Shown: positions 2 to 50,617 of the stretch, one piece after another
How positions within the stretch are numbered: the first letter of the stretch is position 1
Layout: the number at the start of each line of letters is the position of its first letter
Virus record (IMG/VR): IMGVR_UViG_3300026484_000108
Location: 1 to 50,733 of that record
DNA length: 50,733 nt
Reading direction: 5' to 3' (one strand)
Origin: a virus
Lineage: Duplodnaviria > Caudoviricetes
Position numbers and translations under genes: made by a program
Notes under the pieces: generated by a model
Seen by the model: only the letters and a program-made list of their open reading frames with translations
What the model was told of the DNA's origin: nothing
Databases searched by the model: none

Positions 2-403
2 AAAGATGAAAATTGTATAGGTAGTTTTAATATACCTTTACAATTTGAATTAGGTAAAGTTAAAAAGAAAAAATATTCATTAAACTTGAATACATATAGA
101 AATTTACATTATCAAGTAAATAATAATTTAAAAGTATTAGTTTCTGAATATATAAAAGATTTTGTATTAATTTTACCTATACATGAACCAGTAAGAATAA
201 ATTATATTATATATCCTGGTTCAAAGATAAGAATGGATTTAGACAATATGGTGGTTATTGCTAAATATGTGCAAGATGGTTTAGTAAATGCAGGTATATT
301 AGAAGATGATGATTATAAGCATGTAGTTAATATATCTTTTCAAATTGGTGGATTAGATCCAGATAAAAAAGGTTATTGTGAAGTTATTATAAGGAAAATA
401 TAA
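2..403 (+). CDS. RusA-like Holliday junction resolvase (5'-truncated by window edge)
   Basis: Frame is open from position 2 (KDENCIG...YSLNLNTYRN). RusA-type acidic motifs RMDLDN..AKYVQDGLVNAGILEDDD. Confidence 0.8.
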   Translation, partial: KDENCIGSFNIPLQFELGKVKKKKYSLNLNTYRNLHYQVNNNLKVLVSEYIKDFVLILPIHEPVRINYIIYPGSKIRMDLDNMVVIAKYVQDGLVNAGILEDDDYKHVVNISFQIGGLDPDKKGYCEVIIRKI

Positions 404-404
404 G

Positions 405-803
405 ATGAAAAAGAAAATAATATATTTTATAATAAAATATATTTCTGTATTAAATAATAGTATATTAAAAACAGAATTGATAATAGTAAATAAGTTAAAA
501 TATGCTGTAGAGATTAAAAAATTAGATTCTGAAATAACTAGTATTTTAAGAAGTCTTGGTGCTATAAAGATAACCACTAAAGTTACTCAAGCATTATTAG
601 ACGCTTTAGAAAATACATCTAAAGATAATTTAAATACTGCTATTGAGTATTTAAATATTTTTGTAGATGGATTTCTATTAAAATTTAAAGATAATATTTA
701 TAATGATAATAATGAAATATATTTATTAGTGTCTTACACACAAGAAATAAAAGATTTATTACGAACAGAATTAGATAATTTAAAGGAAAAAAATGAAAAT
801 TGA
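405..803 (+). CDS. hypothetical protein
   Basis: 132-aa ORF tightly packed in the operon. Confidence 0.6.
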   Translation: MKKKIIYFIIKYISVLNNSILKTELIIVNKLKYAVEIKKLDSEITSILRSLGAIKITTKVTQALLDALENTSKDNLNTAIEYLNIFVDGFLLKFKDNIYNDNNEIYLLVSYTQEIKDLLRTELDNLKEKNEN

Positions 804-1074
804 ATTTAATCAAGAAGAATTAGTAGAAGGTATTCTATTACTTTTAGAAGAGCAAGGATTTAAAAAAGATAATTTTATAGTACAAAACTTTAGATTTGTA
901 AGTGGTAGAGGTGAAAATGGTGATAGAGTTGAAGTTGAATTATGTAAAAAATTATCTACTTCAATAGAGCCAGAAAAAGTAAATAATGAAGAACTTATAT
1001 CTAAAAAAGATGATCCATTTAAAGAAGAAAGTAACCATAATAAAAAAACTGTTGGTGATTTATTTAAATCATAA
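793..1074 (+). CDS. conserved N4-like hypothetical protein
   Basis: AAGGA RBS. MKIEFNQEEL...SGRGENG pattern resembles a small protein found near the resolvase in N4-like phages (recalled, not searched). Confidence 0.55.
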   Translation: MKIEFNQEELVEGILLLLEEQGFKKDNFIVQNFRFVSGRGENGDRVEVELCKKLSTSIEPEKVNNEELISKKDDPFKEESNHNKKTVGDLFKS

Positions 1075-1091
1075 AATAAAAAGGAGAAAGA

Positions 1092-1298
1092 ATGAGAAAA
1101 GAAGTTGAAGTTAGAAAAGAATTACAAGAAGTAGCTGTGAGACTTATAGGTGCTATTGCTATTAAAGATAACAGAAATACAGATATTGCTACAAAAAATA
1201 TTAGAAAAATTATTCTTAAAATTGAAGAAATTGGTAAAGAATATAGAAAAGTTACATCACCAAAATTACTAAAAAGTAATAAATCAAATGAAAGTTGA
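1092..1298 (+). CDS. hypothetical helical protein
   Basis: AAGGAG RBS upstream, 68 aa. Confidence 0.65.
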   Translation: MRKEVEVRKELQEVAVRLIGAIAIKDNRNTDIATKNIRKIILKIEEIGKEYRKVTSPKLLKSNKSNES

Positions 1299-2082
1299 TT
1301 TATTATATATAAGTCCTTTGTGGCTTATTAGTAATGGTATAAGACAAAGTCATAATACAACTGATAAAGCTGATAGTCATTGGTTAATTTCAAATCAATT
1401 TAAATGTCCTTATTGTGATTCTGATAAAACAGAAGTATCACTTAGTCAATATGAATGTAATGTAACCGGTATATGTTTAGATTGTGAAGCTAATCTAAAA
1501 ATTCATATAGGTGAAAAAGATTATGATTTAATTAAAAGAGTAGGTTTTAAACTTAAACATGAAAGTGTTTTAGAACATAGTTTAATTGTATTTGAATTTG
1601 AAGCAAGTAGAGCATTACTTCAAGAATTATCTAGACATAGAATTGGTGTAAGTCCTACTATAAAATCTACAAGATATACTTTAAAAGAATTAAGAAACGA
1701 AAAACCTTTTGTAAAAATAAATGGAGCAATAACTGAAGAACAATATAATAGGGCTTCTAAATATGTATTTTTTACAGAAGATGAAATGGTTAATGAAATT
1801 ATAGTTAATAATCTTGAGTATTTAAGATATTTAATCGAAAAAAATAAATCTAATGATGTAGCGAAATATACTTTACCTGAAGCTTATAAATTTAAAGGAC
1901 AAGTAAGTTTTAATTTAAGAAGTTTATTACATTTACTTAAATTAAGAATTGAAAAATCAGCTTTAAAAGAATTTAGATTATTATGTAAAGATATTATTGA
2001 TTCTTTACCTATTGAATGGAAAGAATTAGTATTATTAGATGCACAGATAGAAAAAAATTACAAGGAATTAAACAATGAATGA
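1288..2082 (+). CDS. thyX: FAD-dependent thymidylate synthase with Zn-ribbon insertion
   Basis: HESVLEH, SRALLQELSRHR.....KSTRY ThyX motif, AKYTLP, NLRSL..LR. Closely resembles Campylobacter-type ThyX. Confidence 0.93.
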   Translation: MKVDLLYISPLWLISNGIRQSHNTTDKADSHWLISNQFKCPYCDSDKTEVSLSQYECNVTGICLDCEANLKIHIGEKDYDLIKRVGFKLKHESVLEHSLIVFEFEASRALLQELSRHRIGVSPTIKSTRYTLKELRNEKPFVKINGAITEEQYNRASKYVFFTEDEMVNEIIVNNLEYLRYLIEKNKSNDVAKYTLPEAYKFKGQVSFNLRSLLHLLKLRIEKSALKEFRLLCKDIIDSLPIEWKELVLLDAQIEKNYKELNNE

Positions 2083-2380
2083 AAGTAAGTTAGTATATAG
2101 AAGTATTAAATCAGATAAAAATGATAATTACTTGAGAATAGAAATCGTAGAAAAAGAATCAGCTGCAGTATTAACAGAAGGTACATTAGGTATGTTGATA
2201 GTTAAAGATCTTTCAGATGGACAATTATTTGCAATAAGCCCTGTAGCATTAAAAAATAACTTTAAAATAGAAAAAATTGTAGCAGATGAACCAGAAAATG
2301 AAGAAAACTCTGAACTTGATGACTTAATGGAAATACTTAATGCATTAGACAAAGCATTAAATTCTTCTAAAAATGATTAA
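2075..2380 (+). CDS. hypothetical protein
   Basis: Overlaps thyX stop, AAGGA RBS, acidic C-terminus. Confidence 0.65.
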   Translation: MNESKLVYRSIKSDKNDNYLRIEIVEKESAAVLTEGTLGMLIVKDLSDGQLFAISPVALKNNFKIEKIVADEPENEENSELDDLMEILNALDKALNSSKND

Positions 2381-2406
2381 TAATAGAACTTTTTCTGGTT
2401 CTATTA
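2381..2406 (+). terminator. inverted repeat, possible terminator
   Basis: TAATAGAAC-N8-GTTCTATTA right after a stop codon. The right arm overlaps a CTGGTTC motif. Confidence 0.4.
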
Positions 2407-2425
2407 TAAAAGGAAAGGAATAAAA

Positions 2426-2605
2426 ATGCATATATATGAAATACAAGGTAATGGAAAAGGATTATATAGAATTATTTTAACTAAAAAGAAAAAATATATA
2501 AAAAGTATAACAAAATATATATTTAGTAATAAACAAGAAGCTTTAGTATATATAGAAAAATTAAAGGAAGAAAATGACTATACAGGAATTACAGAAAGAA
2601 ATTGA
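2426..2605 (+). CDS. small hypothetical protein (59 aa, not in ORF track)
   Basis: AAGGAAAGGA RBS. MHIYEIQGNGKGLYRII...ITERN*; fills the gap. Confidence 0.6.
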   Translation: MHIYEIQGNGKGLYRIILTKKKKYIKSITKYIFSNKQEALVYIEKLKEENDYTGITERN

Positions 2606-3455
2606 AGTACTGTATAAAGAGGATAATTATTTTCTTCTTTCTAATACAGCTACTTCTTTATTAGATAAATTTGATACAAGTTTATATAAATTATATAAAG
2701 TACTTAAAAAACTTAATTTAAGTAGAAAACAAGCATATATTGATTTAGTATCTAAACATGACCCAAAAGATGTTACGGCTTTTGAGCTAATAAAAAGATA
2801 TAAATTAAAATCAGTAAAAGTATCTACTTTAAAAAGATATGCTAAAGAAATACATGGAATACCTTATATGGATTTTTATGATAAACAATCTAAAGAATTA
2901 GAAGAAGAAATAAATGAAATGTTAGAAGAGTATGAATTTCCTTTATTACAATTAGGTAGAATAGGTATAATAAACTATTTAGGTATTGGTATAAATAAAT
3001 ACTATAAACTAAAAAAACAAAAAAGATGGTCTAAAAGAAAAGAGTATAAAAGATTATTTAATACTTATCCATTAAATGAATATTCAATGCAAGAGATTGC
3101 TAATATAATAGGTAAAAATAAGGCTACTATTATAGATTGGGTAGAAAAATTAAAAATAGAAAGAACTACTAAAAAAGCAATTTCTATGAAAGTAATTAAA
3201 GCTCGTAGAGAAAGATACGGTTTAACGCCTGTAAAAGAGCAAATAAAGAAATTTTCTTATAAAGAGATAAAAACATGGTTTGAAAGTAAATTATTGAACC
3301 AGAAGGAATTATCAGTAAAAGAAATAAAAGAATATCTTGGTAGAAAGGATATGAATAAAGTACTTTACTGGATCAAGAAAAATTATGGTTTAATAGATTA
3401 TGTATTTGATCATAAAGAATTGAAGTATAAATTAAAGGATAATAATGACATATAG
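2574..3455 (+). CDS. multi-HTH basic DNA-binding protein
   Basis: HTH-like segments VKVSTLKRYAK, YSMQEIANIIGKNKATIIDWV and LSVKEIKEYLG. Lys-rich. Confidence 0.55.
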   Translation: MTIQELQKEIEVLYKEDNYFLLSNTATSLLDKFDTSLYKLYKVLKKLNLSRKQAYIDLVSKHDPKDVTAFELIKRYKLKSVKVSTLKRYAKEIHGIPYMDFYDKQSKELEEEINEMLEEYEFPLLQLGRIGIINYLGIGINKYYKLKKQKRWSKRKEYKRLFNTYPLNEYSMQEIANIIGKNKATIIDWVEKLKIERTTKKAISMKVIKARRERYGLTPVKEQIKKFSYKEIKTWFESKLLNQKELSVKEIKEYLGRKDMNKVLYWIKKNYGLIDYVFDHKELKYKLKDNNDI

Positions 3456-3711
3456 TGATTTTATAGAAGAAGAAATTCTAAAAGAATTGAGGACAGGTAA
3501 CTATATAACAAAGATAGCTAATTGGTATAGTGCTAAATGGAATAGTACAGAAGTAATAATTTATACCTTTAAAGGGCATAGAGCTTATTATTCTGGAGGA
3601 ACTACTACTTTGCTTATTAGTAAAAATAATTTTAAAGTAGTTACTAAAAAGAGTATTGGAAAAGACATTAAACATTTATATACAGAATATTCTAAAGGAG
3701 AAGAGTTATGA
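3445..3711 (+). CDS. hypothetical protein
   Basis: RBS, overlapping start/stop with neighbours. Confidence 0.65.
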   Translation: MTYSDFIEEEILKELRTGNYITKIANWYSAKWNSTEVIIYTFKGHRAYYSGGTTTLLISKNNFKVVTKKSIGKDIKHLYTEYSKGEEL

Positions 3712-4013
3712 AAACAGAAGAGATACTAAAACAAAGAGGGTTTCGTTATGGAGAATTTAAAGATTTAGCTATAATTAGTCAAAAGTTAAAAGATATTGTA
3801 TATGAAGTAGATGGTGTACAAGATAAAGTATTAATAGAAGCTATAGAAATGATAATGCATAAGATAGCAAGAATTATTAATGGAGATGAATCATATATTG
3901 ATAATTGGGCAGATATAGCTGGTTATGCTACATTAGCAGTACAATATTTAGAAAAAGGGAAAAAAGATGAAAAATTGGCGAAACAGCAAAGCTTACCGAC
4001 ATTGGAGGATTAA
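3708..4013 (+). CDS. DUF6378-family phage protein
   Basis: RG..YG.F...EAIEMIMHKIARIINGD..YIDNWADIAGYA signature. Confidence 0.75.
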   Translation: MKTEEILKQRGFRYGEFKDLAIISQKLKDIVYEVDGVQDKVLIEAIEMIMHKIARIINGDESYIDNWADIAGYATLAVQYLEKGKKDEKLAKQQSLPTLED

Positions 4014-4257
4014 AGTTATTAGAAGAGATAAAAGATGTGTTATATGTGGATCTATTAAAAGTAGAAATGCTCATCATATGAACCATGCAACATATTTTCC
4101 AGAACAAAGATTTGATGTAGAAAATGGAGTTACTTTATGTGCTAATTGTCATAGACAATTTCATACAAACTTTAAAAGAAGTTTTAGAACAAAATGTACT
4201 GAGTATGATTTTAAAAATTTCATAGAATTAAGTAATTATCTAAAAGGATTGAAATGA
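3967..4257 (+). CDS. HNH endonuclease
   Basis: WR..V..RD..CVICG...AHH...NGVTLCANCHRQFH. Confidence 0.88.
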   Translation: MKNWRNSKAYRHWRIKVIRRDKRCVICGSIKSRNAHHMNHATYFPEQRFDVENGVTLCANCHRQFHTNFKRSFRTKCTEYDFKNFIELSNYLKGLK

Positions 4258-4436
4258 AAATAGGTGAAAAATATAAACATGTTAGTAGATTATCTATTTA
4301 TGAAATAGTGGATTTAGTTTCATTAGAAGTAAAAGGTAGAATTGAACCAGGAATAGTATACATTAAAGAGAATGAACCAGAAACTAAATATTGTAGAAGT
4401 GCAAGAAGTTTTAAATCTAATTTTAATAAGGTTTAA
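4254..4436 (+). CDS. DUF1653-like small protein
   Basis: YKH....YEIV...IVY.....YCRS...F..NF pattern. Confidence 0.5.
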   Translation: MKIGEKYKHVSRLSIYEIVDLVSLEVKGRIEPGIVYIKENEPETKYCRSARSFKSNFNKV

Positions 4437-4438
4437 GT

Positions 4439-4606
4439 ATGGATATAATTAAAAGTTTCTTCTTAGCTTTATTTATTACTGCAGGTGCTATTATTACCTG
4501 GTTCAGTAGTATAGTAATAGGCTATTTTTTAGCAATTGTAGGAGGAATAATACTATCTGTTTTTTTATTATTTCAAATAATATTAGGGACAATTAGGAAA
4601 GCTTAA
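4439..4606 (+). CDS. small two-TM membrane protein (55 aa, not in ORF track)
   Basis: MDIIKSFFLALFITAGAIITWFSSIVIGYFLAIVGGIILSVFLLFQIILGTIRKA*. Its stop overlaps the convergent vRNAP stop. Confidence 0.7.
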   Translation: MDIIKSFFLALFITAGAIITWFSSIVIGYFLAIVGGIILSVFLLFQIILGTIRKA

Positions 4607-7600
4607 AGACTTCCCATTCTTTCCCATAATGCTAATGGATTTGCTCTATTAAATAATTCATCATAAATATGAATACTTCTATTTGTAATTATATCAGTCA
4701 ATGATTGATTATAACTTTCATATATTTCAGGAACATCTACTATATTATTTATTCCAAATAATCTTATAGCTTTTTCAGGTGATTTACCTATAGTATTTAA
4801 TACTACTTTTACAGTACCTAATACAAATTTACTGAACATAAATGCTCCAGTATCATTAAGATACTTAATATATTTATTTTCATTTAAGTTGTAATTTACA
4901 AAGTATTGATCAGCTTCTAATATAGCTTCCTCTTTAGATTTACCTTGTTTTATTAAATAGTCCATATAAGTTTGTTTAGCTACTACATCTGAATACTGCA
5001 TTATTTTAATTGCTTTTTTAAATGGTGCTGAATCTTCAGTTAAAAATAAAGATTTTATTATACTTTTAGTAGTTTCATTCATATTTTTATCTATATAACT
5101 ATTTATTTTATTACTAATTAAATTAGTGTCATTTATGTTAGATATAGTGGCATCTTCAATAATTGAACCAACAATACCATTTTCTACTAAATAACTCATT
5201 CTATTTTTACTAATAGAAATATTTAATACTTTTAATTCTCTTTTATCTTTACTATCAGCAATACCATTACTAACTTTACTATCTAATATATGTTTTCTCT
5301 GTAGATCTTTATTTAATTTATCAAATAAAATCCAATTTTTTCTAAATTCTCTATATACTTCTACAGGACTCATAAATTGAGATAATACAAAAAAGTTAGA
5401 TGCAAAGTTTCCATACAATACAGCCCCATTAACAATTACCATTCCTGGTTTAAGTAATTTAATTAAATCTTTCCATAATTTTTCTATTAATTTTATTTTT
5501 TCTCTTAGATATTTAAGGTTAGTGTTATGGAATATAGGTATATTTGCGATACTAGCATCTTTAAACCCAAAAGTATCATTTAATAAATATTTGTCTACAT
5601 AAATAAAGTTTTTTCCTTTAGTAGCTTTATATAAGTAATCTTTTGTGTCTTGAGGAAGAATATCATAATATTCTTCATTATGTTTTATTTTTACACCACT
5701 TATAGTTTCTATACCTACTTTTACATATCTATTTGGTTTTTTTGGATCATAACTCTTAATGAAATAATCAATCATTTTTTTATTCCATTCTCTACCATTA
5801 ATTTTTAAATACATATGTGATTGAGTATTAGATATTACACTTCTTATATCCATATTTAATCCACTATGCTCTTCCATATCAGAATTATGTATAGTATATC
5901 TATAATTAACTATATTACCATCTAAATCTAATATAGGTACTACTTTAGTTTCTTTTTTACTTAATAAGTTAGAATATTCTTTTCTTGGATCAAAATCTTG
6001 AGACTCGTTTATTTTACTATTTTCAGCTATTTTTTTAATCATATTTAATACTAAAGCTTCAGTTAATTTATTATCCTCTGTGTCTTTATTAGTATACTTA
6101 TCTGTTAAAGTAATACCCATTGTAGACATTCCTGTAATCTCGAATGCTCCTTTGGTATATGATGGTTCTGTATTTAATCTTTTTACTAATATAGTATCAT
6201 GGGTACCAGATTCTTTACTATCTTTACCTATTGTTACTATTTCAGTCCAACCATATGATTTATATGTTTTTAAATCTTTACTTGATATTACTTTAGTTTC
6301 ATATAAGTTATTTGATTTAGGTCTGATATAACCTTTTATTTTATGTACATCTTCTTCAAATAATTCATTAGTTTTAGTATGAATACCATTTCTAATGTAA
6401 GTAATTAGTTTATTAAATTTTTTTGGATGAGTATTTACATAATGCTTTAAGATATTTAAATCTTCTTTAGGTGTATAATTTAAAGCATATAAACTTATTA
6501 ATTCATCTATTAATTGAATTTCTCTTTCAGTTGTAGCTATTTTAGAACCAGTAAATGTTCCATTAGCAATATTGTTAGCATTTAACATTAAATTATCTAA
6601 AGTAGATACTCCTGTAAGCATATAATAAGCAAGTGCTTTAGCTTGATTTATTTTGGCTTGTGAGAAAGTAAATTTACCTAATTCTTTTTCTATTTCATGT
6701 ATTCTTACATTTCTAATACTATCATCTCTAATAAATCTTTTTATTCTATTTATATCTCTTATAGAAGCTATATCTGTTTTTAATATAGAGGTAGTCAAAG
6801 ACTTTAATTGTTTTTTATTTAACCCTGGAACCAGAGAATCTAATAATTCTATATTAGCTGTTTCTATATGCATTCTTAAAGTTTCTTGTATATATTTTAT
6901 TTTAGAGAATAATCTATAAAATTCAGAGAAATTAGCATTAGATATAAACATTTCTTTAGTTAGATCTCTTATTAGTTTAACAAAATCAAAGTTTATAGTT
7001 TTAGTTATTCTATTTATAGTTCTCATAGAAGCTGCCCATTTAGTACTTGTATCCATCATATCTTGAGCTTCTTTAAAAGTATTTTCTAATTTAGAATAAT
7101 TTTTCTTTATGTTATTAAATATTGGATTTGTTATTTCTCTATATTTAGTTATTTTAACTATATTATCCATTAATTTATATAAAGCTTCAATACTTCTATT
7201 TTCTTCTGGTTCATATTTTCTTTCATTTACTAATTGTGTTAATCTTACAGCTGTTATTAATATATCTTGTAATTCTTTATCTAATGTATTTTTATTTAGA
7301 TCTATTTTATCAAATATATAATTTATAGCTTTAATAACATAATTAAATAAAGTATCTACTATATTATTAGTTTCTATTTCATCTATTAATTTACTTTTAG
7401 TTTTTATTTTAGAATAGTTATCATTTATATATTTATTTAGTATAGGATTTGTAACTGCTATAGTTAAAAATTCAGAAGGACTTGTTTGCATATATTCATA
7501 TAATTCCTTACTTCTTTGTTTAGCTTTCTCTGTATGAGGCATACCTTCAGGTATAAAGAATGTTTCTGGATCTACACCATCTTTTTTAAGTAATTCTAAT

Positions 7601-10600
7601 ATTTGTTTTTTTACTAATAAGATTCTAGTCTTAGTTTTAGCATCTGCCTGAATACCTTTTTCTGTAAGTAAGTGTGTCATTTCGTGCATAAATACTTCAG
7701 CTTCAGTTTGTAAAGACAAACCAGTACCTTTAGATAATTTAATTACATTTCTCATTATATCAGCTGAACCTCTATTAAAAGTTTTATTTATAAATTCTAC
7801 TACTTTTAATTTGTCAGCTGTTTTAAAGAATGAACCAATAAGAGAAATAAAGTTATTTAAAGTGGTATCTTTTAATAGAGTATCTTCTGGAGTAAGTAAA
7901 TCATTTAAAAAATTTTCAACTTCTTTTTTATTAGTTAGTTCTCTAGTATTTTCACTTTTACCCATAGATTTAGTATATGTAGAAGAACCTATTTCAACAT
8001 CTATTATATCTTCTACTTGTTTATGTAGATTATTATATTCTTCTGTTAAAATATCATTTACTTTTTCATATAAATTAGTAGTATCTAATTCATTTAATTT
8101 ACTTAATTTTATAGCAAGATTATGTATTTTATCTGGATCATTCATAATTAAATATTGTTTTATTAAATGTAAAGCTTTATGTAATGTTTGATGTTTAGTT
8201 ATACCTTCTTTATTTGCAGTCATTTTAATAATCATAGCAGCATCATCTTTATTTATACCTAATTTAACTAAATTTTCTACTAACTTTTTTCTATCAGTTA
8301 AACTACTACCTGTAATATCTTTTAATATATCATCAATACTTTGTATGTTTGTTACATTAGTATTTGTTTCTTTTATAGTAATATTTTTATTAGTATTTTT
8401 TGATATATTCTTTAAATGTTTAAGTAATTCAAGCATAGATTTTTGTAATTCTTTAGAATTACTTAATTCTTGAATCTCAACCTTTTCTCCATTTTTATTA
8501 GTGTATGAAGAATATTCTAATTCTCTTGTACCTATAAAAGCAGATCTACTATTATAAGTAATATCTTTAATCTTAACTGGTTCAAATGTTTTAGTATCTT
8601 TATTATATTTATAATATTTATTATCTCTTGTATTTAATACATAGATAGTTTTATTTAATTTAATAGCTAATTTAACTGCTGAATTAGTTCCACCTTCTCC
8701 TGATTTTAAGTTTATATTTAAAGGCATTACAGCATATACATTATCAGCATTGATTATTTGAAAGTAATTTCTGTTATTCATATAATGTGTATTATTTTTG
8801 GCTTTCTCATTAGCTTCTTGTCCTAATCTATTTTCTTCATTTGTTATTTGTATAAAAGTATCTTTAGATGTCTTATGCCATTCTCTACTACCTCTTTTAA
8901 TTGGTAATATATGCCTATTTATTGCTTTAGAACCAAAAACTTTACTAATTAATTCAGCCCATATACGATCAGCACCTGTTGCACCACCTGAAAAGTTATT
9001 TAATTTATTTTCGTCTATTGAATCATAAAAATCACTTTTAGTAAATGTTCTACTTGGTATTTTATTACTATTATCTTTATGAGTATCTGTTATATAAACA
9101 TATTCTGTTAATTTATCCATATGATATTCATGCATTACTTCTTTTATTAAATCGTCTAAATGAATTATTTCTTCTTTATTTAAAGAATCTAAATGTTCTT
9201 GTATTAAGTTATCAATAATAACACCATCTTCTTTAGATAAAAATATTTTCATCTTTTTAGTTAATAATTTAAATTTATTAAACCCTTCTTGTGTTAAATC
9301 TTCATATACTTCAAAACCAGTTAAACCACTTTCAGCTAAATGTTTTATAGCAAGGTATCTAGCTAATGCTTTATCTTCTATATTTCTAATCATTTCTCTT
9401 ATATTAGCGTGATTATTTAATTCCATAGGTTGTTCTACATCATTTTCTGTATTTATAAGCATTACAGTTTCTAATCTTTGTAGAATATCTGTCAAAGAAT
9501 GTGAACCAGAAAGTGCAAATAAATTACTTATTTGATCTTTTATATGTTCTGCTGCTTTTTTAGATATTTCTTCTTTAAAGTTGAAAGTATGTTGTTTTAA
9601 AATATCTTCTTCTTTTATATTATCACTTTTATATAAAGTAGATTTTTCATCTGTTACATAGTTATGTGCTGATAATACATTTTTACTAAAGAAATCTTTA
9701 ATATTCTTTTTAACTTCATTTATATTATGTTCAGTATATGCATACTCTAATACATTTAAAGCTATATTCACTATTTCTAATTGTTGTTTTTGTCTCAATG
9801 CTCCTGTACTATCTTCATCTTTTACAGAAATATTAGTAACATTATTCATAAAAGCCTCAAAAGTTTCCTCATTAGTTAATATAGTATGCGCTTTAGCTAA
9901 TAAAACTATATATACATTATATTCTTTAGATACATCAATAATTGATTTATTATAGTTATATACACTATTAAATAAATCTTTTCCATTTACACCACTTAAT
10001 AAGGCATCAAATATATGAGTTACATTATTCTTGTTTTCTTTTAATGCATCCATTATTATTTTACTATCTATTTGGTGTGCTGATACTGCACCAATAGCTG
10101 CAAGATTATCTGTAAATTCTTTTAGTCTTACGGCTGTTATTTGATAATGATTTATACCATTTTTTATTGATTTAGTTTTACTAGGATTTTTTTCTTCATT
10201 TTCAAGAGTAACATTACCTTTACTTGCTGCTTGAAAATCATACCATATACCATCATCTTGCATAGATTGAATTACTTCTATATATTGTTCTAAAGTCCAT
10301 TTAAATCTATCTTCACCAAACTTATCTGACATTCTTTTATAAAATGTATTTATTGAACCAAGATAAGTAATTTTAGCTAATTGTTGTAATTTTTCTCTAT
10401 AATCAGTAATAGGTGTATATCTTTGAAATACTCTTTTAAATAAATAACCAAAAGATGGCATATAAACTCTATTAAAATAACTATCTATAGCATTACCTTG
10501 TAAACCTAAATCTTTAAATTTAAAACTTTTAAAATCAATATCTTCATTTTTATTACTAAATGTAGTATTTTTCATTGTTGAATCTAATTCTGGATCTAAT

Positions 10601-33894: not shown

Positions 33895-33895
33895 T

Positions 33896-36249: not shown

Positions 36250-36288
36250 AAAAAAATAATCTCAGCTATATAATTATAGCTGAGATTA
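36250..36288 (-). terminator. intrinsic terminator
   Basis: Perfect 14-bp inverted repeat TAATCTCAGCTATA-TAAT-TATAGCTGAGATTA followed by T7 on the - strand. Confidence 0.7.
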
Positions 36289-37470: not shown

Positions 37471-37513
37471 ACAGCACTCCTTTATAAATTAGAGCCAGAA
37501 AAGAGAAAATCTC

Positions 37514-38101: not shown

Positions 38102-38154
38102 GATATATCCTTTTAAAATATGTTTTCTTTACCCAACCAACCACCCTAAATAAA

Positions 38155-38160
38155 ATTATA
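38155..38160 (-). promoter_or_regulatory. -10 box upstream of EF-hand gene
   Basis: TATAAT in the intergenic gap. Confidence 0.45.
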
Positions 38161-38166
38161 TCTAAA

Positions 38167-41430: not shown

Positions 41431-41439
41431 TTATTCTCC

Positions 41440-42887: not shown

Positions 42888-42898
42888 CTTTTATCCTT

Positions 42899-43627
42899 TT
42901 ACACAAAATTAATTATATTATTATTATATTCTTCAACAGAATTTAAACCACCATTATTCTTAATCAATTCTTGTATAGCAGTATAAAATCTTTGATAATA
43001 TAAATTTTCCATCTGAAAAGCATTAACATTACTCACAGAAGTATGTAATCTATCTAATACTCCCCAATATAAAGCATTCTTTATCCTCATATAATTTAGA
43101 TCAGATAACTCACTAATATCATAGTAAATAACTGAACCATAAACTAATGCTTTATTATAAGTCTTAAAATCAAATCCTTCATTAAGTTTTAACCAATCAC
43201 CTTCTATAGTTTTATTAGGTAATTCTCCAAAATCGATATTAAGACACTCTAATACATTTAAAGCTTTTATTTTAGTATTTCTAACTTGTTTATTTTGATC
43301 AGGTAAAACAAATTCTCCAGCTTCTATATCAGTATTAAATTGATTTGAACCAGAAAAAGTAATAGTATTAGTAATACCTGTAGACACTCCTTGTTCTAAA
43401 ATAGTTTTTAAATTATAATCATACTTTTTTTCCCTAATAATTTCATTAGTGACTGGATCCCTTTTTTCATCTAATAGATCAAATGTGATAATTCTTTTAA
43501 AAGGATTTGCTTGTATTTGAATATCTATTAGTATTTCATTAGCTAATGTAAGCAATTCATCATCATCTTTTTTAATGTTATTAAATAAATTCCTTAACAC
43601 TTTTATTATATTATTATTATCTAACAT
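42899..43627 (-). CDS. putative head-tail adaptor (N4 gp67 position)
   Basis: Synteny next to TerL; ALY.GV and NLYYQRF helical C-terminus. Confidence 0.5.
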   Translation of the reverse strand: MLDNNNIIKVLRNLFNNIKKDDDELLTLANEILIDIQIQANPFKRIITFDLLDEKRDPVTNEIIREKKYDYNLKTILEQGVSTGITNTITFSGSNQFNTDIEAGEFVLPDQNKQVRNTKIKALNVLECLNIDFGELPNKTIEGDWLKLNEGFDFKTYNKALVYGSVIYYDISELSDLNYMRIKNALYWGVLDRLHTSVSNVNAFQMENLYYQRFYTAIQELIKNNGGLNSVEEYNNNIINFV

Positions 43628-43637
43628 TTATGTATCC

Positions 43638-45221
43638 TTATATATCATATGGATTATATCCATCATCTTCTTCTTCATAATACGACACTTCTTCAAATTC
43701 ATCAGTCTTCTCATTATATTTATATTCCACAGGTGCACTTGGTAATATAGGCTCAAAAGTAATCAACATAGAAATTATATCTAAAAAGTCATCATGTTTA
43801 GATTTAAACCCATCAGCTGATACATTAAATATTTCAGATAACCCTTCATCCATAAAAGTACTGCCTTCTAACTCAGAAGCAAACCATATTCTTTTAGCTT
43901 TAAATAAAGGTTCTACTAACTTAAATCTACTAAATTTATTAGTACTTGGTCTAATACCTGGTTTAGAAGCACCTGGTTCTGATAGCAAATTAAAGAATAT
44001 ATTCCTTTTAATCATTTCTTGCTGGATCCAAGATATAAATCCTCCTTGTTGTCCTGTTACTTCCACGCCTACTCCAAGTGGTTTATACATAGAAATAAAT
44101 CTAAATAAATCATTTATATTTTCATCCATTTGCTGTCTAGCTAATTTACCATCAACTAATAAGAATTGCCCTTCTGTATTGACAGCCCATACACCTACAA
44201 CACTGTAATCAGCACTTCTCTTTTCACTTGTAGCAAAGTCAGTAGTAATATAGAAGTTATAATTACTTTTGTTCTTAAAGACTTCTTTTCTACTGAACCA
44301 GACAATATCATCTGGTTGGATTAACATATCTTCTTTACTTAAAATTCTAAGCATTAATTCCTGGTTAAATGAATGTATCCTACCTACTGCTTTAGCAGAC
44401 TCATACTCATCTTTAACATATTCATAAGGAAATCTATCTTCCCAGCTACCTATAAACTCTTCTGGTCTACAAGGGAATTTAGTTGCAATAGGATAAACAC
44501 TTACATCCCAAGTACCAGATTCTACTACCTCAACTAATGGATCATTCTTATTAAATGGAGTACCAATATAAATAGTTTTACTCCTTGTAGGGTGCATAGC
44601 TTTACCTATAGCATTATGAACATTATTCTTAACATTCTCTAATTCAGTGGGAGATTTAGCATCTTGATCTGAAAGTAAATCATCCATTACTACTAATTGA
44701 GGTCTAATACCCATTTCTTTAGTACCCCTTATATTAGTTTTAGCACCATACATCTTAACTACAAACTTTTTACCTGATTTATTAACAAACTCTAATCTAT
44801 TATCTGTAAATCTAATCTTAGGTACCCACTCTTTCATAAAATCACTATTCTCATATCTTGACTCTATATTCTTTCTTAAGTTCTTAGCCCCACCTTCAGC
44901 ACTATCTGCTACATATAAAGCTAGACTTACTTCTCCAAAACCAGGCATCTCTCCAAATACAGCAATATACATAAACATATACTCTGCAATTAGAGTAGTT
45001 TTAGCAAATCCCCTATGACACACAATAGCATGTCTTTTCTTTCTACTAAATACATTATCTAATACTTTAAAATGTACTACAGGAGTTTTATTTTCTTCTG
45101 CTCCTCCATTAACCATCTTAATAAAATTAACAAACTCTATAGCCTCAGGAGAAGGAGTATATCCATCAAACTTATACTCAGCTTCATTTAAATAATCTTC
45201 TAATGTTTTAGTCTTCACCAT
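43638..45221 (-). CDS. terL: terminase large subunit (N4 gp68-like)
   Basis: Walker A-like CHRGFAKTT, RPQLVVMDDL Walker B, GTPFN, TTDFATS, HDDFLD nuclease motif. Confidence 0.95.
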   Translation of the reverse strand: MVKTKTLEDYLNEAEYKFDGYTPSPEAIEFVNFIKMVNGGAEENKTPVVHFKVLDNVFSRKKRHAIVCHRGFAKTTLIAEYMFMYIAVFGEMPGFGEVSLALYVADSAEGGAKNLRKNIESRYENSDFMKEWVPKIRFTDNRLEFVNKSGKKFVVKMYGAKTNIRGTKEMGIRPQLVVMDDLLSDQDAKSPTELENVKNNVHNAIGKAMHPTRSKTIYIGTPFNKNDPLVEVVESGTWDVSVYPIATKFPCRPEEFIGSWEDRFPYEYVKDEYESAKAVGRIHSFNQELMLRILSKEDMLIQPDDIVWFSRKEVFKNKSNYNFYITTDFATSEKRSADYSVVGVWAVNTEGQFLLVDGKLARQQMDENINDLFRFISMYKPLGVGVEVTGQQGGFISWIQQEMIKRNIFFNLLSEPGASKPGIRPSTNKFSRFKLVEPLFKAKRIWFASELEGSTFMDEGLSEIFNVSADGFKSKHDDFLDIISMLITFEPILPSAPVEYKYNEKTDEFEEVSYYEEEDDGYNPYDI

Positions 45222-45525
45222 AACATTTGTCCTTTATTTCTTGTTCTAATCTAAGTAAATACTCATTAACTTTCTCCTGATATATTGTTTTAGGGTATAT
45301 TGACATTACAATATGTTTTCTATAATTTATTATATATTCCATAATAAATTTACTATAACGACATAAATGTTCATTTACAAATACATTTAAACCTATAGGT
45401 CTTTTTCTTTGTAACATCATATATCTATGCCATTGAAACATAGGTTCATCAAATTTAATAACTTTAACTGATCCATCTTTATAATATAATTCTATCCTTG
45501 CGTCTCTTGTATTATCCATAATCAT
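45208..45525 (-). CDS. hypothetical protein
   Basis: 105 aa, coupled between the gp69-like gene and terL. Confidence 0.6.
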   Translation of the reverse strand: MIMDNTRDARIELYYKDGSVKVIKFDEPMFQWHRYMMLQRKRPIGLNVFVNEHLCRYSKFIMEYIINYRKHIVMSIYPKTIYQEKVNEYLLRLEQEIKDKCYGED

Positions 45526-46211
45526 TCCTCTATTTCAGCTTCTATAATTTTCATTTCTGCGACATCTTTAGCATTTACAGCTCCTGTATTAATAGCTTCT
45601 AACTGTTTACTTGCAAATTGTCTCATAGTGTTCTTTAAATCCTCTAATTCTTTACTTGGTTTCATACTAACTTCTAATTCTACTTTGTTATTTTCAGGTA
45701 ATTTAAGCTCTCTAATTAAAGCTTCTGCTGCTTTCATTCTAACCATCTCACTTTTAGCAGTCATAACTAAATTACTCAATTCATTTATAGCCATCTGTAC
45801 TTTATCCTGGTTCATAACATGTGCAGGAATTAAAGTCCTTTCAGTAATAGCTATAATCAAATCACCCTTATTATAAGCACTAATATACTTATGTTGATCA
45901 GCTATAGGTACACCTTCTTTTAACCATTTATTTACTTTATCTTTAAACACTATACTATAAGCATCATGATTAGTAAATCCCATATTCTTCAAAGACACAT
46001 ACTTAACAGCATTAACATATTTCTCTAAATTCCATCTACCATTCTCTAATACTTTAGCATAAGTAATCATTTCTTCAGTAAAATCAAACTTATCGTCTTT
46101 AACAGTAGCAAGTAACTTCTCATACAATTCTTCAGTTAATTGTTTTCTTTTATTTGGAGGTAATTGTTTTTTAAATATTTTATATTCTTGTAGTTGTTCT
46201 TCACTTAACAT
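45522..46211 (-). CDS. N4 gp69-like protein (putative terminase small subunit)
   Basis: YVNAVKYVS.K.MG.TN..AY, SAYNKG.L, AKSEMVR..AA..L..LK.PE; synteny. Confidence 0.75.
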   Translation of the reverse strand: MLSEEQLQEYKIFKKQLPPNKRKQLTEELYEKLLATVKDDKFDFTEEMITYAKVLENGRWNLEKYVNAVKYVSLKNMGFTNHDAYSIVFKDKVNKWLKEGVPIADQHKYISAYNKGDLIIAITERTLIPAHVMNQDKVQMAINELSNLVMTAKSEMVRMKAAEALIRELKLPENNKVELEVSMKPSKELEDLKNTMRQFASKQLEAINTGAVNAKDVAEMKIIEAEIEE

Positions 46212-46244
46212 ATATTATCCTTTGGTTTAAGATCACATATGATA

Positions 46245-46253
46245 ATTATACCA
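46245..46253 (-). promoter_or_regulatory. extended -10 late promoter (TGGTATAAT) inside ACATATG/CATATGT palindrome
   Basis: About 34 nt upstream of the first late gene. Confidence 0.6.
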
Positions 46254-46408
46254 TATGTAATCCATAAAAATAAAACAAACCAAAGAATAACATACTTCAA
46301 TGAATAACTTAGAAGCAGTAAAATTATACTTAAATTGAACCAGAAAAGCAAACTAATTAAGAAGTGTTGTAACAAAACACCTTATTTAAGGGATTTATAT
46401 AAAGAAAG

Positions 46409-46417
46409 TGATATAAT
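46409..46417 (+). promoter_or_regulatory. possible extended -10 promoter (TGATATAAT) facing early region
   Basis: Motif match in the divergent non-coding region. Confidence 0.4.
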
Positions 46418-46548
46418 TTCTAAGAAACTTTCTCTGAAAGAATTTCTTTCAAGGAAATTTCTTGAAATTATATCAATATTTTTAAATTTGTCAAGTGTAT
46501 TTGTAAATATCATTCAAAAGTCCAAGAAAAAATTCAATTTTTTAGTAT

Positions 46549-46619
46549 GAGCGTAGTAAACTACTCTGGATCAACTTCTGACGAAGTTATCCCCCCCTGG
46601 CATTAAGTAGGTACTACTT
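46549..46619. promoter_or_regulatory. cluster of three short hairpins, candidate vRNAP promoter/terminus
   Basis: GAGCGTAGTAAACTACTC; AACTTC-TGAC-GAAGTT; AAGTAG-GTA-CTACTT; C7 run in between. Confidence 0.5.
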
Positions 46620-46657
46620 TAGTATTATCTATGAAAATTAAAATTAAGGAGTATATT

Positions 46658-46831
46658 ATGGTAGAAGTAGCTTTAGGTTCATTATTGTTTGTAGTATTTA
46701 TTAGTATATTTGGTGGATATTATGAAACAGCTATTAGTAAAATTATAGATTTAAGTGTATTATTTATTACAAAAGTGTTAAGTGCATTAAAATCTATTGA
46801 ACAACCAACAGAAGAAGGAGAACAACAGTAG
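46658..46831 (+). CDS. early small membrane protein (start revised to ATG 46658)
   Basis: AAGGAG RBS precedes MVEVALGSLLFVVFISIFGG. Confidence 0.65.
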   Translation: MVEVALGSLLFVVFISIFGGYYETAISKIIDLSVLFITKVLSALKSIEQPTEEGEQQ

Positions 46832-46845
46832 TTGTTCTTTATTCT
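46819..46845 (+). terminator. intrinsic terminator
   Basis: GAGAACAAC-AGTA-GTTGTTCTT followed by T-rich sequence. Confidence 0.55.
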
Positions 46846-46937
46846 TTACTTTGTAAAGCACTCACTTCACATCACTTAAAGATAGGACATTCTCTATTAT
46901 TATATATGAAAATTAAATTACACAAAAAGGAGACAAG

Positions 46938-47174
46938 ATGAACAACAAAGACAGATTAAAAGTTTTAGTGCAATTAAGTGGTATAAATATAGGTATTCTA
47001 TATGTAAATGGAAATGTAGCCGATGGTTATGATCCAGAAGATGTTATAGATAGATTAAACTACTTTGCTAATGGGTCAGATTATAGTTTTGAAGAATATA
47101 AACCAAAAGGTATTAATGTGTTAGGATTAACTCCTAAAAATAAACAAAAATCTAAACAACCAGAAGAGTATTAA
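46938..47174 (+). CDS. early hypothetical protein
   Basis: AAGGAG RBS. Confidence 0.7.
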   Translation: MNNKDRLKVLVQLSGINIGILYVNGNVADGYDPEDVIDRLNYFANGSDYSFEEYKPKGINVLGLTPKNKQKSKQPEEY

Positions 47175-47189
47175 CTCTTCTTCTTTTTT
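47162..47189 (+). terminator. intrinsic terminator
   Basis: AGAAGAGT-ATTA-ACTCTTCT followed by TCTTTTTT. Confidence 0.65.
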
Positions 47190-47438
47190 ATCACATATAC
47201 AAGATAGGTAAGTGAATTAATTCAATACTTTATTTATCTATCTTATATAACTACTTTAAATACCTACATAAATGGCTCATAAATGCTCATATTTAAACAA
47301 AGTCATTCAAGATAGGTAAAACTACTATAACCTTATAATTTTTGTTATATAGTCTTTTATTGTTGTTCTTTTGTTTGTTGTTGTTTTATCTTTTTCTCTT
47401 TGGTTCCTCTTTGGTATTATTTATGTAGTAGTAAATTA

Positions 47439-47676
47439 ATAGACCCGAATATGTCTATAAACTATTCTAAATTAAACTAAAAGGATTTACAATGACAAGG
47501 GTAAAATATGCAGGGTATTACTATTCATTCCCAAAAGGAAGTCATCCAGAATTAATTATTCAAGGTGGTAAAAATATAGTTAGTATTGATGAATGGAGTA
47601 AAGCTCCACAAGATAAAAAAATGATATTAGTTTAAGTTATAGACCTGAATATGTCTTAAAACTATTCTAAATTAAA
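47439..47676 (+). repeat. 38-bp direct repeat (47439-47476 / 47639-47676)
   Basis: ATAGACCYGAATATGTCTWWAAACTATTCTAAATTAAA, 3 mismatches, each just upstream of an RBS. Confidence 0.85.
47492..47635 (+). CDS. early small protein (47 aa, not in ORF track)
   Basis: AAGGA RBS; MTRVKYAGYYYSFPKGSHPELIIQGG...MILV*. Confidence 0.7.
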   Translation: MTRVKYAGYYYSFPKGSHPELIIQGGKNIVSIDEWSKAPQDKKMILV

Positions 47677-47689
47677 AAAAGGATAAAAA

Positions 47690-48013
47690 ATGTTAAAAGT
47701 TAATCTTAAAAAAGATATAAAAATTGAAGGTATTAATATTGTTAAATTAAATAATAAATTACAATTAACAGGATTCACTTGGTATGGTGGAAGTTTAATA
47801 ACAGTTACTAAATATTTAAAATTAAAACATTTACAAAATATTAAAGTAATAGATATTAAAAATAGAGAAGACAGTTGTGTAGTATCAATAGAAATTAATG
47901 ATATAGGAGTATCACAAGCAATAGACACTTGTGTAGGATTTCAAAGATTAATTAATAAAGAAAGAATTAATATTTTAGAAGAATTATCTTGTATACCAAA
48001 TGTTAAAGAATAA
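47690..48013 (+). CDS. early hypothetical protein
   Basis: AAGGA RBS after the second repeat copy. Confidence 0.65.
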   Translation: MLKVNLKKDIKIEGINIVKLNNKLQLTGFTWYGGSLITVTKYLKLKHLQNIKVIDIKNREDSCVVSIEINDIGVSQAIDTCVGFQRLINKERINILEELSCIPNVKE

Positions 48014-48065
48014 AAAGAATAAGAAGAGAAATCTTCTTATTTATTTTAAATTTAAAGGAAATAGG

Positions 48066-48818
48066 ATGAAAGAGTCAACATTTAAATTGTTATCTTATCG
48101 ATTAAATAAGATAGGCTATGACTTTAGTGATAAGAAAGATTTATTAGAAAAGTATTTTAAAAAATTAATATTTACACAAGAGAGTTGGAGTTTACAATAT
48201 ATAGCAGCTTTAATAGGTAAAAAATTGTGTAAAGATTTTAAAATAAATCTACCTAATGATCTAGAAGTAGCTTATCAAGGAATTAGATTTCTTGAAATGC
48301 TACCTAAAACATTAATAAATTATAGAGTAGGATATACTCCTGAAGGTACTCCATCAATAGTAATAATCCCTCAACATTATTTCGAAGAAGAATTAGAGGA
48401 AAAATCTATTGAACCAGAATTAGATCCAGAAGAGATAGAATATTCTAAAAGAGATCTAATTCATAAGAGATTTTGGAAAGGAAGTATATTTGATTTAGAT
48501 ATGGATTCTTTAGATATATTAAATAGAGTAGCTTTTACTATTGATAAGAGTATATCTATATTAGAGGACCCAAGTTATGATAAATCAGAATATAAACACT
48601 TAGAAAAGAATAGAAGTAAAGAATTAGTAGATAAATATATTAATATAAATAAATTCTACTTTAGACATTTCTATGATACAAGAGGACGTATATATAGTAG
48701 AGGGTATCACATTAACCCACAGGGAACTAAATATAAAAAAGCAATGCTTACAATGATTAATAATACTCAATGGAACCAAGAAGATAAAGAAGAATTAAAA
48801 GACTTCTTACAAAATTAA
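48066..48818 (+). CDS. RNA polymerase II subunit 1 (N4 gp15-like); start revised from 48000
   Basis: FYFRHFYDTRGRIYSRGYHINPQG..YKKA signature; AAAGGA RBS before ATG 48066. Confidence 0.9.
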   Translation: MKESTFKLLSYRLNKIGYDFSDKKDLLEKYFKKLIFTQESWSLQYIAALIGKKLCKDFKINLPNDLEVAYQGIRFLEMLPKTLINYRVGYTPEGTPSIVIIPQHYFEEELEEKSIEPELDPEEIEYSKRDLIHKRFWKGSIFDLDMDSLDILNRVAFTIDKSISILEDPSYDKSEYKHLEKNRSKELVDKYININKFYFRHFYDTRGRIYSRGYHINPQGTKYKKAMLTMINNTQWNQEDKEELKDFLQN

Positions 48819-48833
48819 ATATAAAGGAAAAAA

Positions 48834-49817
48834 ATGTATAGTAAATTAAATAAATTTGAATGGATAGCAATTAGTGTAGCAAACGAAGCAGGGTTTGATA
48901 AACTACTTTGGAATGAGAGAGTAGTTAAAGGTAAAGAGATAATTAATTCTTATCTTAATGGTTCATTTGATCCAGAAAAATGTAATCTCTTGCTTATTAA
49001 AAGATTAAATGAGGTTAAAGAGTTAGTAACAGGAGTTGCTACTCAAGAACCTAACATTTACCTTGATGCTACGGCATCAGGGTTACAAATACTTAGTGCT
49101 ATCTCATTAGATTTAGAAGCAGGTAATAAAGTAAATATCGGTACTAAAGAAAGGAAAGATGTTTATTTAGAGACTGCAAAGTTATTTGGGGAAATGTTTG
49201 GATTAGAAATAGAACGGGAACACGTTAAGAAACCCCTTATGACATATTTCTATAATTCAAGAAAGAACATAGAAGACTATTTCGGAGAAGAGATGGCTGA
49301 AATGTTCTTCGAGATGATGGAAGAAGGATTCAAAGGACCTCAAAAGGTGTTAAATACAGTAAATAAATACTTTGAACCAAGAAAAGTATTTGAATATAAC
49401 TTACCTGATATGAAGGTAAGTATACCTGTAGAAGTAAGTGTTACTGAAGATCTTAAGTTTAAAGATATAGAAGAAGTACCATTTACATATAAAATTAACC
49501 AAGCTGATAAAAATCAATGGAGAGGTTTAGTACCTAACATTGTACATTCACTTGATGCTTGGATATTAAGATATGTAGTTAAGCAATTAAATGAAGAAGG
49601 AATAGTAGTACATACTATTCACGATTCATTTCAAGTACCAGTAAGTAAAGCAGCTGAATTAATAAATGCTTATAAAGAAGCATTTATTACTATGGTTAAA
49701 GATGAATTATTTCCAAATATTATGAAAGACTTATTTGATGTAGAAATAAATTATAATTCTAAAAGAAAAGCAGCAATGATTGAAGCTATTAAGAGAAGTG
49801 AGTATATGTTGAGTTAA
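48834..49817 (+). CDS. RNA polymerase II subunit 2 (N4 gp16-like)
   Basis: Motif A LDATASGLQI, motif B REHVKKPLMTYFYNS, NIVHSLDA, motif C IHDSF. Confidence 0.93.
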   Translation: MYSKLNKFEWIAISVANEAGFDKLLWNERVVKGKEIINSYLNGSFDPEKCNLLLIKRLNEVKELVTGVATQEPNIYLDATASGLQILSAISLDLEAGNKVNIGTKERKDVYLETAKLFGEMFGLEIEREHVKKPLMTYFYNSRKNIEDYFGEEMAEMFFEMMEEGFKGPQKVLNTVNKYFEPRKVFEYNLPDMKVSIPVEVSVTEDLKFKDIEEVPFTYKINQADKNQWRGLVPNIVHSLDAWILRYVVKQLNEEGIVVHTIHDSFQVPVSKAAELINAYKEAFITMVKDELFPNIMKDLFDVEINYNSKRKAAMIEAIKRSEYMLS

Positions 49818-49844
49818 TCTCAATGTATCTCTCTTTCTTTTTTT
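49803..49844 (+). terminator. intrinsic terminator after RNAPII
   Basis: ATATGTTGAG-TTAAT-CTCAATGTAT (with G-U pairs) followed by a T-run. Confidence 0.55.
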
Positions 49845-49888
49845 CTTATAAATATAATATAATTATATAAATTTTAAAAGGAGATAAA

Positions 49889-50029
49889 ATGGTAGAAGTA
49901 ATTACACACGGATTACTTACTTTTAGTATGCTAATGCTATTAAGTAAAGATAGAAAACCAGAAGATACTTTAATAAAAGATATACTTAAAACTATTAATT
50001 ATTTTACTGGTTCTAAAATAAGAGTATAA
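49889..50029 (+). CDS. small protein (46 aa, not in ORF track)
   Basis: AAGGAG RBS; MVEVITHGLLTFSMLMLLS...KIRV*. Confidence 0.6.
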   Translation: MVEVITHGLLTFSMLMLLSKDRKPEDTLIKDILKTINYFTGSKIRV

Positions 50030-50046
50030 TCTCTTATTCTCCCTTG

Positions 50047-50070
50047 TTCTCGGTCGTAAACTCCCTCGAA
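50047..50070 (-). other. strand-specific tandem G.A hairpin
   Basis: - strand TTC GA GG GA GT-TT-AC GA CC GA GAA. Confidence 0.65.
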
Positions 50071-50197
50071 ATTAAATTGTTTTGTGAAAAAATAATATAG
50101 GTAAAGATACTTATATTTATTGTTTTGTGAATGTTAAAATAGATAGGTATATTTAAAAATATACTGTATCTTGAAAAATTACAAATAAAGGAAAAAG

Positions 50198-50617
50198 ATG
50201 AATAATATAAATGGATTATTAAGAGAATTAATAGGAGGAGGTTATCTTGACTGGAAACAATTAGATGAATACATTGAAAAATATCAAATAGATCCAGAAG
50301 ATATAGCACAAGAAGTAAAATATATGTTTGGTGAAGGTTATTTACCAACATTTAACGATTTGATGTATATAACATTATATTTAGGATTTTATAGTATGAA
50401 AGATTATATTCTAACTATTATAAAAGAAAATGAATGGAATATAAAGAGTGAAGTAAAAGATTGGATAGAAAATGTAGAATTTAATTGTTTTGTGAATTAC
50501 TTAGACAGTTTTATACAAACCCCAATATTCTGTGATTATGATATGGAAGAATTAACTGGGGATAAAAGAGTTGTTGCATATTTTATAGCTGATGTGTGGA
50601 AAGAGATAAAGGAGTAA
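50198..50617 (+). CDS. hypothetical acidic protein
   Basis: AAGGA RBS, 139 aa. Confidence 0.7.
   Translation: MNNINGLLRELIGGGYLDWKQLDEYIEKYQIDPEDIAQEVKYMFGEGYLPTFNDLMYITLYLGFYSMKDYILTIIKENEWNIKSEVKDWIENVEFNCFVNYLDSFIQTPIFCDYDMEELTGDKRVVAYFIADVWKEIKE

Follow-up and report, generated by a model that had tools for sequence, protein, structure and literature searches.

A strand-resolved array of GAWCCAG words in an N4-like phage as putative recognition sites of the gp43 helicase-primase

The question raised by virus record IMGVR_UViG_3300026484_000108 (50,733 nucleotides; hereafter the window, by which the whole stretch of DNA analysed is meant) is why the heptamer GAWCCAG recurs on both strands along nearly its whole length, and which protein reads it. 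The window belongs to an N4-like phage: the virion RNA polymerase, the two-subunit RNA polymerase II and the N4-type capsid, portal and terminase (Schitoviridae markers) are all present. It has a GC content of 26%, and the record is linear and estimated to be 74% complete, with 26% of the genome unseen; its start falls inside a RusA gene, and the replication block is absent from it. The copies are read here, with a probability of about 0.65, as putative recognition sites of the phage's own gp43 (dns) helicase-primase, a protein whose fold is that of archaeo-eukaryotic primases (AEP). The dns protein of N4 is described as essential and as an SF6 helicase with a C-terminal AEP domain (PMC4889955).

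The word was counted by program at 104 copies, 57 of them reading GAWCCAG and 47 reading CTGGWTC on the + strand, so that the hand count of the initial annotation (57 and 46, about 100 copies) and every example coordinate listed there were borne out. The expectation of about 3 copies given there was matched by dinucleotide shuffling (3.9 ± 1.9, maximum 8 in 100 shuffles), but the codon-preserving null, in which synonymous codons were shuffled within genes, gave a far higher one of 31.4 ± 3.9 genic copies. The 98 genic copies observed exceeded the highest of 300 such shuffles (42), and the enrichment is about 3-fold with proteins and codon use held, instead of 25-fold from base content. The protein sequences permit the word at 201 places, of which 98 were used and 25 were expected to be. 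Cheap synonymous places were near saturation ([DE]P[VADEG] 44 of 49, xGS 27 of 31), and the other frames were used at 11 of 22 (W[FI]), 9 of 41 (L[DV]), 6 of 47 ([NI]Q) and 1 of 11 places (remaining frame), respectively; 27 copies occupied frames with about 0.3 expected. All six frame/orientation classes were represented and six copies were intergenic, in agreement with the initial description. That the word forces the rare codon CTG-Leu also held, 9 of the 15 CTG-Leu codons of the window lying inside it, but the same claim for CAG-Gln was dropped, because just 6 of 59 CAG-Gln codons lie in the word. One-mismatch neighbours of GAWCCAG were at or under expectation with the exception of GAWCCAA (30 against 19), and the flanks showed T and never C at position -1, an A-rich 3' side and no long consensus. 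An origin of the array in codon and amino-acid usage alone (EPE, DPE, SGS) would account for the 44 of 98 genic copies in the E/D-P frame and for the rise of the expectation from 4 to 31 under the codon null; by the shuffle maximum, the 27 copies where about 0.3 were expected and the intergenic copies, this reading is refuted. Selection at the DNA level beyond protein composition, and with it the proposal of a dispersed cis-acting signal, is thus supported by both the codon null and the use of permitted places.

The mean gap between copies was 894 bases on the + strand and 1082 bases on the - strand. Gaps within each strand were more even than random (coefficients of variation (CV) in Table 1), whereas those of the pooled strands were random (0.98). 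By shuffling of strand labels, the per-strand evenness had a P value of 0.022 in the window and a Fisher P value of 5e-4 across 15 genomes, which are not independent and for each of which the word was picked separately. Such strand-specific evenness is in keeping with a process confined to one strand and one direction of reading, and it leaves an orientation-blind coating or methyl/modification mark, as considered in the initial annotation, without an explanation for the spacing. Okazaki fragments are 1 to 2 kb long, and the per-strand spacing of the word is close to theirs. The nearest relative (L075; 76% DNA identity over 5.3 kb) has the same word at 1.5 copies per kb; five sites are common to the two phages, and three and four are private, respectively, so that the density is maintained while the positions turn over.

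The word is a trait of the N4-like lineage and is not peculiar to the window phage. N4 itself holds 110 copies (69 and 41 by strand) against 10 of the reversed word, or 100 against 27 expected within genes; all of them are GAACCAG, and the N4 genome holds a single GATC. A CCA-core word was among the top words in 9 of 10 other cultured N4-like phages from six or more host genera, with the following ratios of count to expectation under the codon null: PhAPEC7 GAACCAG 100/28, EcP1 GAACCAA 76/17, VCO139 92/26, SP-058 57/20, DSS3P2 52/18, TUMS_P11 AAGCCAA 77/13, Presley TAGCCAA 41/9, PT15-A5 AAACCAA 65/26 and 1.224.A AACCAAG 45/13. CCA is the fixed three-base core in all variants, with CTA in part of the third gp43 clade described below. 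Second over-used words were also seen in some genomes (TGACCCA 40/11 in N4, GACCCTA 7/1 in L102 and CCCGGG 34/2 in PT11-V19).

A Campylobacterota host is likely, judging from sequence matches, because the window ThyX matched only Campylobacter phages (54 of 54 phage records); a ThyX profile search of genome contigs gave 8 loci, 0 of them from Campylobacterota. A host-defined signal (AddAB/RecBCD Chi, an uptake sequence, or a self mark made by methylation or phosphorothioation), copied by phages to resemble self, would be consistent with the GAACCA core common to many phages with a Campylobacterota-type ThyX: among 80 viral loci fetched by ThyX alignment, many over-use the core variants AGAACCAA, GAACCAC, GAGCCAA and GAWCCAG. 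Phages are, moreover, known to over-represent host Chi (PMC3784561). The host-type set consisted of 49 chromosomal loci of at least 5 kb (from 80 fetched; 712,883 bases), which may not be those of the actual host, and showed no enrichment of GAACCAG (53 against 62), GATCCAG (52 against 89) or GAACCAA (95 against 131). Iteration of the type of DNA uptake sequences (DUS), uptake signal sequences (USS) or the highly iterated palindrome HIP1, with hundreds to thousands of host copies, was not found in these 49 loci. Nor was the word found to be shared by unrelated phages of one host: 1 of 41 phage loci without N4 markers carried it, it was absent from three temperate Nitratiruptor phages, and word-positive phages with structural or replication genes in view were N4-like or smaller relatives. 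Host Chi, which was the first reading adopted, was abandoned in view of the unenriched host-type DNA and the 110 copies in N4, whose host Chi is GCTGGTGG. The host-signal reading, and with it the host Chi/DUS/HIP1-like mark of the initial annotation, is largely refuted and very improbable, since the host-type DNA shows no enrichment and the same word occurs in N4 and in phages of unrelated hosts. Other over-used words of phages without N4 markers (AAATCAGC 27/0.5 in L136, ACCTCCT 18/0.6 in L106 and AGATTAGC 25/1.7 in L112) may be local repeats.

The distribution of the word was compared with that of phage genes. Homologues of gp43 fall into three clades. With loci shorter than 9 kb and 14 duplicates left out, a CCA word reached the top 10 among six-mers in 53 of the 68 canonical-gp43 rows, in 12 of 13 second-clade rows and in 0 of 8 third-clade rows (65 of 81 genomes or loci for the first two clades combined); the figure was 9 of 40 for N4-like loci without a primase in view, 1 of 41 for loci lacking N4 markers and 0 of 39 for those of host type. 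The corresponding figures for a CTA word were 3 of 68, 0 of 13, 3 of 8, 16 of 40, 0 of 41 and 0 of 39, respectively. In the third clade, sampled by the 8 rows and two cultured phages (AD45-P1 and PT11-V19), three phages over-used a CTA core instead (AD45-P1 CTAGTT 169/59, PT11-V19 AACTAC 143/61, G014 CTACG 275/108). One second-clade locus without the CCA word, L413, had TGCTAC (z 7) as its best related word and is possibly an independent switch of the core.

When word classes were assigned by hand, with 8 ambiguous rows omitted, one word-class change was needed on each of the primase, exonuclease, single-stranded DNA-binding protein (SSB; only 3 non-CCA rows) and polymerase trees, two on the Sak4 tree, three on that of the small terminase, and four on each of those of the large terminase, capsid and portal. 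A single non-CCA clade was rejected by the approximately unbiased (AU) test for capsid (p 1.7e-8) and terminase (p 0.035), and L052, which has the CCA word, was placed among CTA phages on the capsid and portal trees. As far as these trees tell, the word follows the replication genes and not the capsid or packaging genes, and the packaging/internalisation site suggested in the initial annotation is disfavoured by this comparison. A mark for packaging or condensation, or one set by a phage methylase, with terminase, portal, capsid or an unseen modifying enzyme as its reader, would suit the coverage of both strands and the whole genome, and could hide in the unseen 26%; it is highly unlikely in view of the four changes on each structural tree, the nesting of L052 and the strand-specific evenness, and a scan of 49 window proteins found no methyltransferase.

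The complete 46-kb genome G006 carries 130 copies of its word and encodes gp43, the exonuclease, Sak4 and SSB; DNA polymerase, virion RNA polymerase, RNA polymerase II and the SF2 helicase were undetected in it. Because of the tree tracking, and because G006 keeps the word without the polymerases or the SF2 helicase, the reader is most likely encoded in the gp42-gp45 block. G006 (L156-L158) and G008 (L162-L164) are both complete N4-related genomes of 45 to 46 kb with gp43, in which no DNA polymerase, virion RNA polymerase or RNA polymerase II was detected.

Two alternatives place the reader elsewhere in the replication or DNA-ejection machinery. One is a Chi-like system private to the phage, in which the gp42 PD-(D/E)XK exonuclease and the Sak4 annealing protein stop or hand over at the oriented word, which would spare phage DNA, mark it as self and set off recombination or fix restart points independently of the host. 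It stays a rival because the gp42 exonuclease tracks the word as well as gp43 does: the exonuclease family was found by BLAST in 12 word-positive and 0 word-negative loci, its tree needs a single change like that of the primase, and the orientation-specific spacing fits. Distant exonuclease homologues are, however, present in word-negative phages, the Sak4 tree needs two changes, and no stand-alone exonuclease of the gp42 type is known to have such a site, which was counted against this alternative. Chi (GCTGGTGG) is over-represented in phages that lack recombinases (PMC3784561, PMC8022716), is likewise an oriented word over-represented in phage genomes and has TGG in common with the word, and the reverse strands of the family words ((G)TTGGTTC, GGTGGTTC and CTGGWTC) resemble it (PMC8022716). 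Chi is defined by the host, though, whose DNA is enriched in it to about 0.2 per kb (PMC3784561, PMC8022716), whereas the word shows no enrichment in DNA of host type, attains densities of 2 to 4 per kb and is found in Sak4-encoding phages; unlike lambdoid Chi (PMC3784561), it showed no clustering near the ends or in one region when counted in bins. On balance a private Chi is unlikely, if still to be reckoned with. The other alternative is a loading or restart site for SSB, the helicase half of gp43 or the large ejected virion protein. The SSB tree would allow it, and G006 retains SSB, Sak4 and a 2964-aa virion protein, but no relationship was detected between the large virion proteins of G006 and those of N4. 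It was also counted against this alternative that AEP primases have documented sequence-specific sites, whereas SSBs are not known to have them; such a loading site is decidedly unlikely.

Within the gp42-gp45 block, the reader is probably gp43 rather than a neighbouring replication protein, and the window phage presumably carries gp43 in its missing part. The putative reader gene would lie just outside the window, because L075 has gp43 next upstream: its gp43, Sak4 and SSB are located upstream of the genes that open the window, at distances of 0 to 4.4 kb. L075 and all the complete word-bearing genomes encode gp43 (phrog_2135, the helical PriCT_1 domain, AEP fold). The C-terminal 305 residues of L075 gp43 gave a predicted fold with a predicted local distance difference test (pLDDT) score of 90.5 in an alignment-based model (45 in the single-sequence model). 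The best fold match was S-2L PrimPol (E 2e-4, Z 8.8, root-mean-square deviation 3.4 over 137 residues), followed by RepB' (Z 6.5) and LigD, with NrS-1 N300 among the weak ones; no solved relative was found by sequence. The C-terminal part of gp43 is therefore modelled as an AEP primase fold. Of the options in the initial annotation, that of a phage DNA-binding protein's site is nearest to this reading; the likely reader, the primase, was not among them.

If gp43 is the reader, GAWCCAG would be selected on both strands at about one copy per kb, and every copy on the exposed single-stranded template would be a start point for a new primer made by gp43. At 26% GC the site is rare by chance, and therefore selection would have to write it in. 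By analogy with the GP55 primase of lactococcal phage 1706, 5'-GAWCCAG-3' would serve as template, with primers that start pppGGWUC; by analogy with the sites of NrS-1 and T7, the template would instead be the CTGGWTC strand. Both assignments of the template strand are analogies.

GP55 uses the template site 5'-CCAAC-3' with a GTP start opposite the second C, and also accepts CTAAC, started with ATP, its specificity being described as loose (PMC12205980). Like gp43 it has the AEP domain behind a helicase domain; its site, like the word, has a CCA core, with CTA accepted as well, and CCAAC is contained in the top word of G005 and G006 (AGAACCAAC); the CCA/CTA split of the N4-like family would, by analogy, mirror the tolerance of GP55. 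Unlike gp43, GP55 is fused to a polymerase, and a genome-wide array is not mentioned for its site in the accessible part of the source (PMC12205980). In phage 1706, ACCAA (238/179) ranked first among five-mers under the codon null. The NrS-1 primase-polymerase has the sites 5'-TTTGGTTA-3' and 5'-GTG(G)-3' (PMC8718748); it is likewise an AEP equipped with a helical bundle and specific for a defined site, and the family words contain TTGGTT and GTGG on their reverse strands. In contrast to the word array, TTTGGTTA occurs once in NrS-1 as an origin-type site, and in contrast to gp43, with which it has no detectable homology, NrSPol doubles as a polymerase. The T7 gp4 primase, with the sites 5'-(G/T)(G/T)GTC-3' (PMC12839067), offers the likeness of short oriented sites along a whole phage genome, read by a helicase-primase. 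Under the codon null, the T7 counts were 126/88 for TGGTC (1.4-fold, rank 10), 82/62 for GGGTC and 69/56 for GTGTC. T7 gp4 differs in being of the DnaG type with a five-base site, and its enrichment is much weaker than the 3- to 6-fold found here. Known primase sites are thus visible under the codon null, more weakly than the word.

Several results weigh against gp43 as the reader. The gene lies outside the 74%-complete window. The word lists of the clade tally were picked after the data had been seen, and 15 of the 68 rows with canonical gp43 had no CCA word in the top 10; VBP47, which has canonical gp43, showed no dominant CCA word but just CCAAG (199/129). A top-10 CTA word was found in just 3 of the 8 third-clade rows, and CTA was diffuse in G010, G011 and G013. 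No fewer changes are needed on the primase tree than on those of the gp42 exonuclease, SSB and polymerase, and an automatic class rule (summed ANCCAN/ANCTAN) gave 4 to 5 changes on all trees, that of the primase included. The latter rule is noisy, since many N4-like phages show a mild over-use of CTA words; the one-change result therefore depends on curation. Per-strand evenness failed in TUMS_P11 (P 0.97) and G009 (P 0.67). Among the known systems, the GP55 site CCAAC was not clearly enriched in phage 1706 (95/85), the T7 site TTGTC was not enriched (70/82), and most of the AEP sites known have fewer than seven bases. When the profile of gp43 was compared with GP55 and NrSPol, no sequence likeness was detected, and the resemblance of the sites is an analogy because of this.

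Literature searches, outside whose reach lay subscription journals, older N4 papers, book chapters and theses, gave no description of the word or of the primase idea. Primase sites are of a known kind; a genome-wide, strongly selected site of six to eight bases across a whole family including N4 was not found described. N4 dns (gp43) is essential for replication, no site for it is known as far as these searches reach, and the word offers a ready substrate in a laboratory phage for a direct test of the way in which N4 copies its second strand. If the gp43 reading is true, primase specificity would be readable from genome words across a whole phage family, the natural CCA and CTA variants would be usable for mapping specificity residues, and recoded N4-like phages would need about one site per kb to be kept on each strand. 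When plasmids were searched for gp43 unaccompanied by the exonuclease, 2 partial hits were obtained; NZ_CP110465.1 (75 kb, deposited as a plasmid of Acinetobacter baumannii) codes for a gp43-like primase and is possibly an N4-like phage.

Table 1. Positions of the word array and of accompanying features in the window
Feature	Position	Strand	Remark
GAWCCAG array, 104 copies (68 GAACCAG, 36 GATCCAG)	185..50297	both	57 on +, 47 on -
GAWCCAG reading on +	185..50297	+	57 copies; gap CV 0.80; 55 genic against 16.2 expected
GAWCCAG reading on -	216..50013	-	47 copies; gap CV 0.74; 42 genic against 15.6 expected
Two overlapping opposite copies (CTGGATCCAG)	15806..15815	both	inside 1684-aa gene; uses rare CTG-Leu
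Inverted copy pair, intergenic, 5 bases between	21609..21627	both	downstream of major capsid gene
RusA-like resolvase, truncated by contig start	2..403	+	nearest relative L075 has 94-95% identical RusA and the same word
ThyX	1288..2082	+	points to host; context, outside the signal itself
Virion RNA polymerase	4603..13701	-	N4-like marker; contains word copies in both orientations
N4-type major capsid to portal genes	21640..26631	-	trees out of step with word class
Terminase large subunit	43638..45221	-	tree out of step with word class
Two-subunit N4-type RNA polymerase II	48000..49817	+	undetected in one complete word-bearing relative

Further features of the window and of L075 were recorded. 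The inverted copy pair downstream of the major capsid gene forms a 7-base inverted repeat with a 5-base loop, and the coding strand has no T run after it. A gene for a multi-HTH protein at 2574-3455 had homologues only in the three closest relatives (L066, L068 and L075), and it was dropped as a candidate reader of the word for that confinement. Within the virion RNA polymerase gene, residues 1564-1706 matched a DprA-like domain (E 4e-8). The gap before the early genes, at 46553-46620, contains three short hairpin-like inverted repeats, a C run and one word copy, and is possibly a genome end or an early promoter region. The L075 ThyX (L075:7059-8885) has 608 aa with a LAGLIDADG domain, likely an intein, and the window ThyX is without it. 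Under the codon null, TCAAAA (18 against 77), CTAG (42 against 106), ACGT (3 against 21) and A runs were strongly depleted in the window, possibly through avoidance of restriction sites or slippage.

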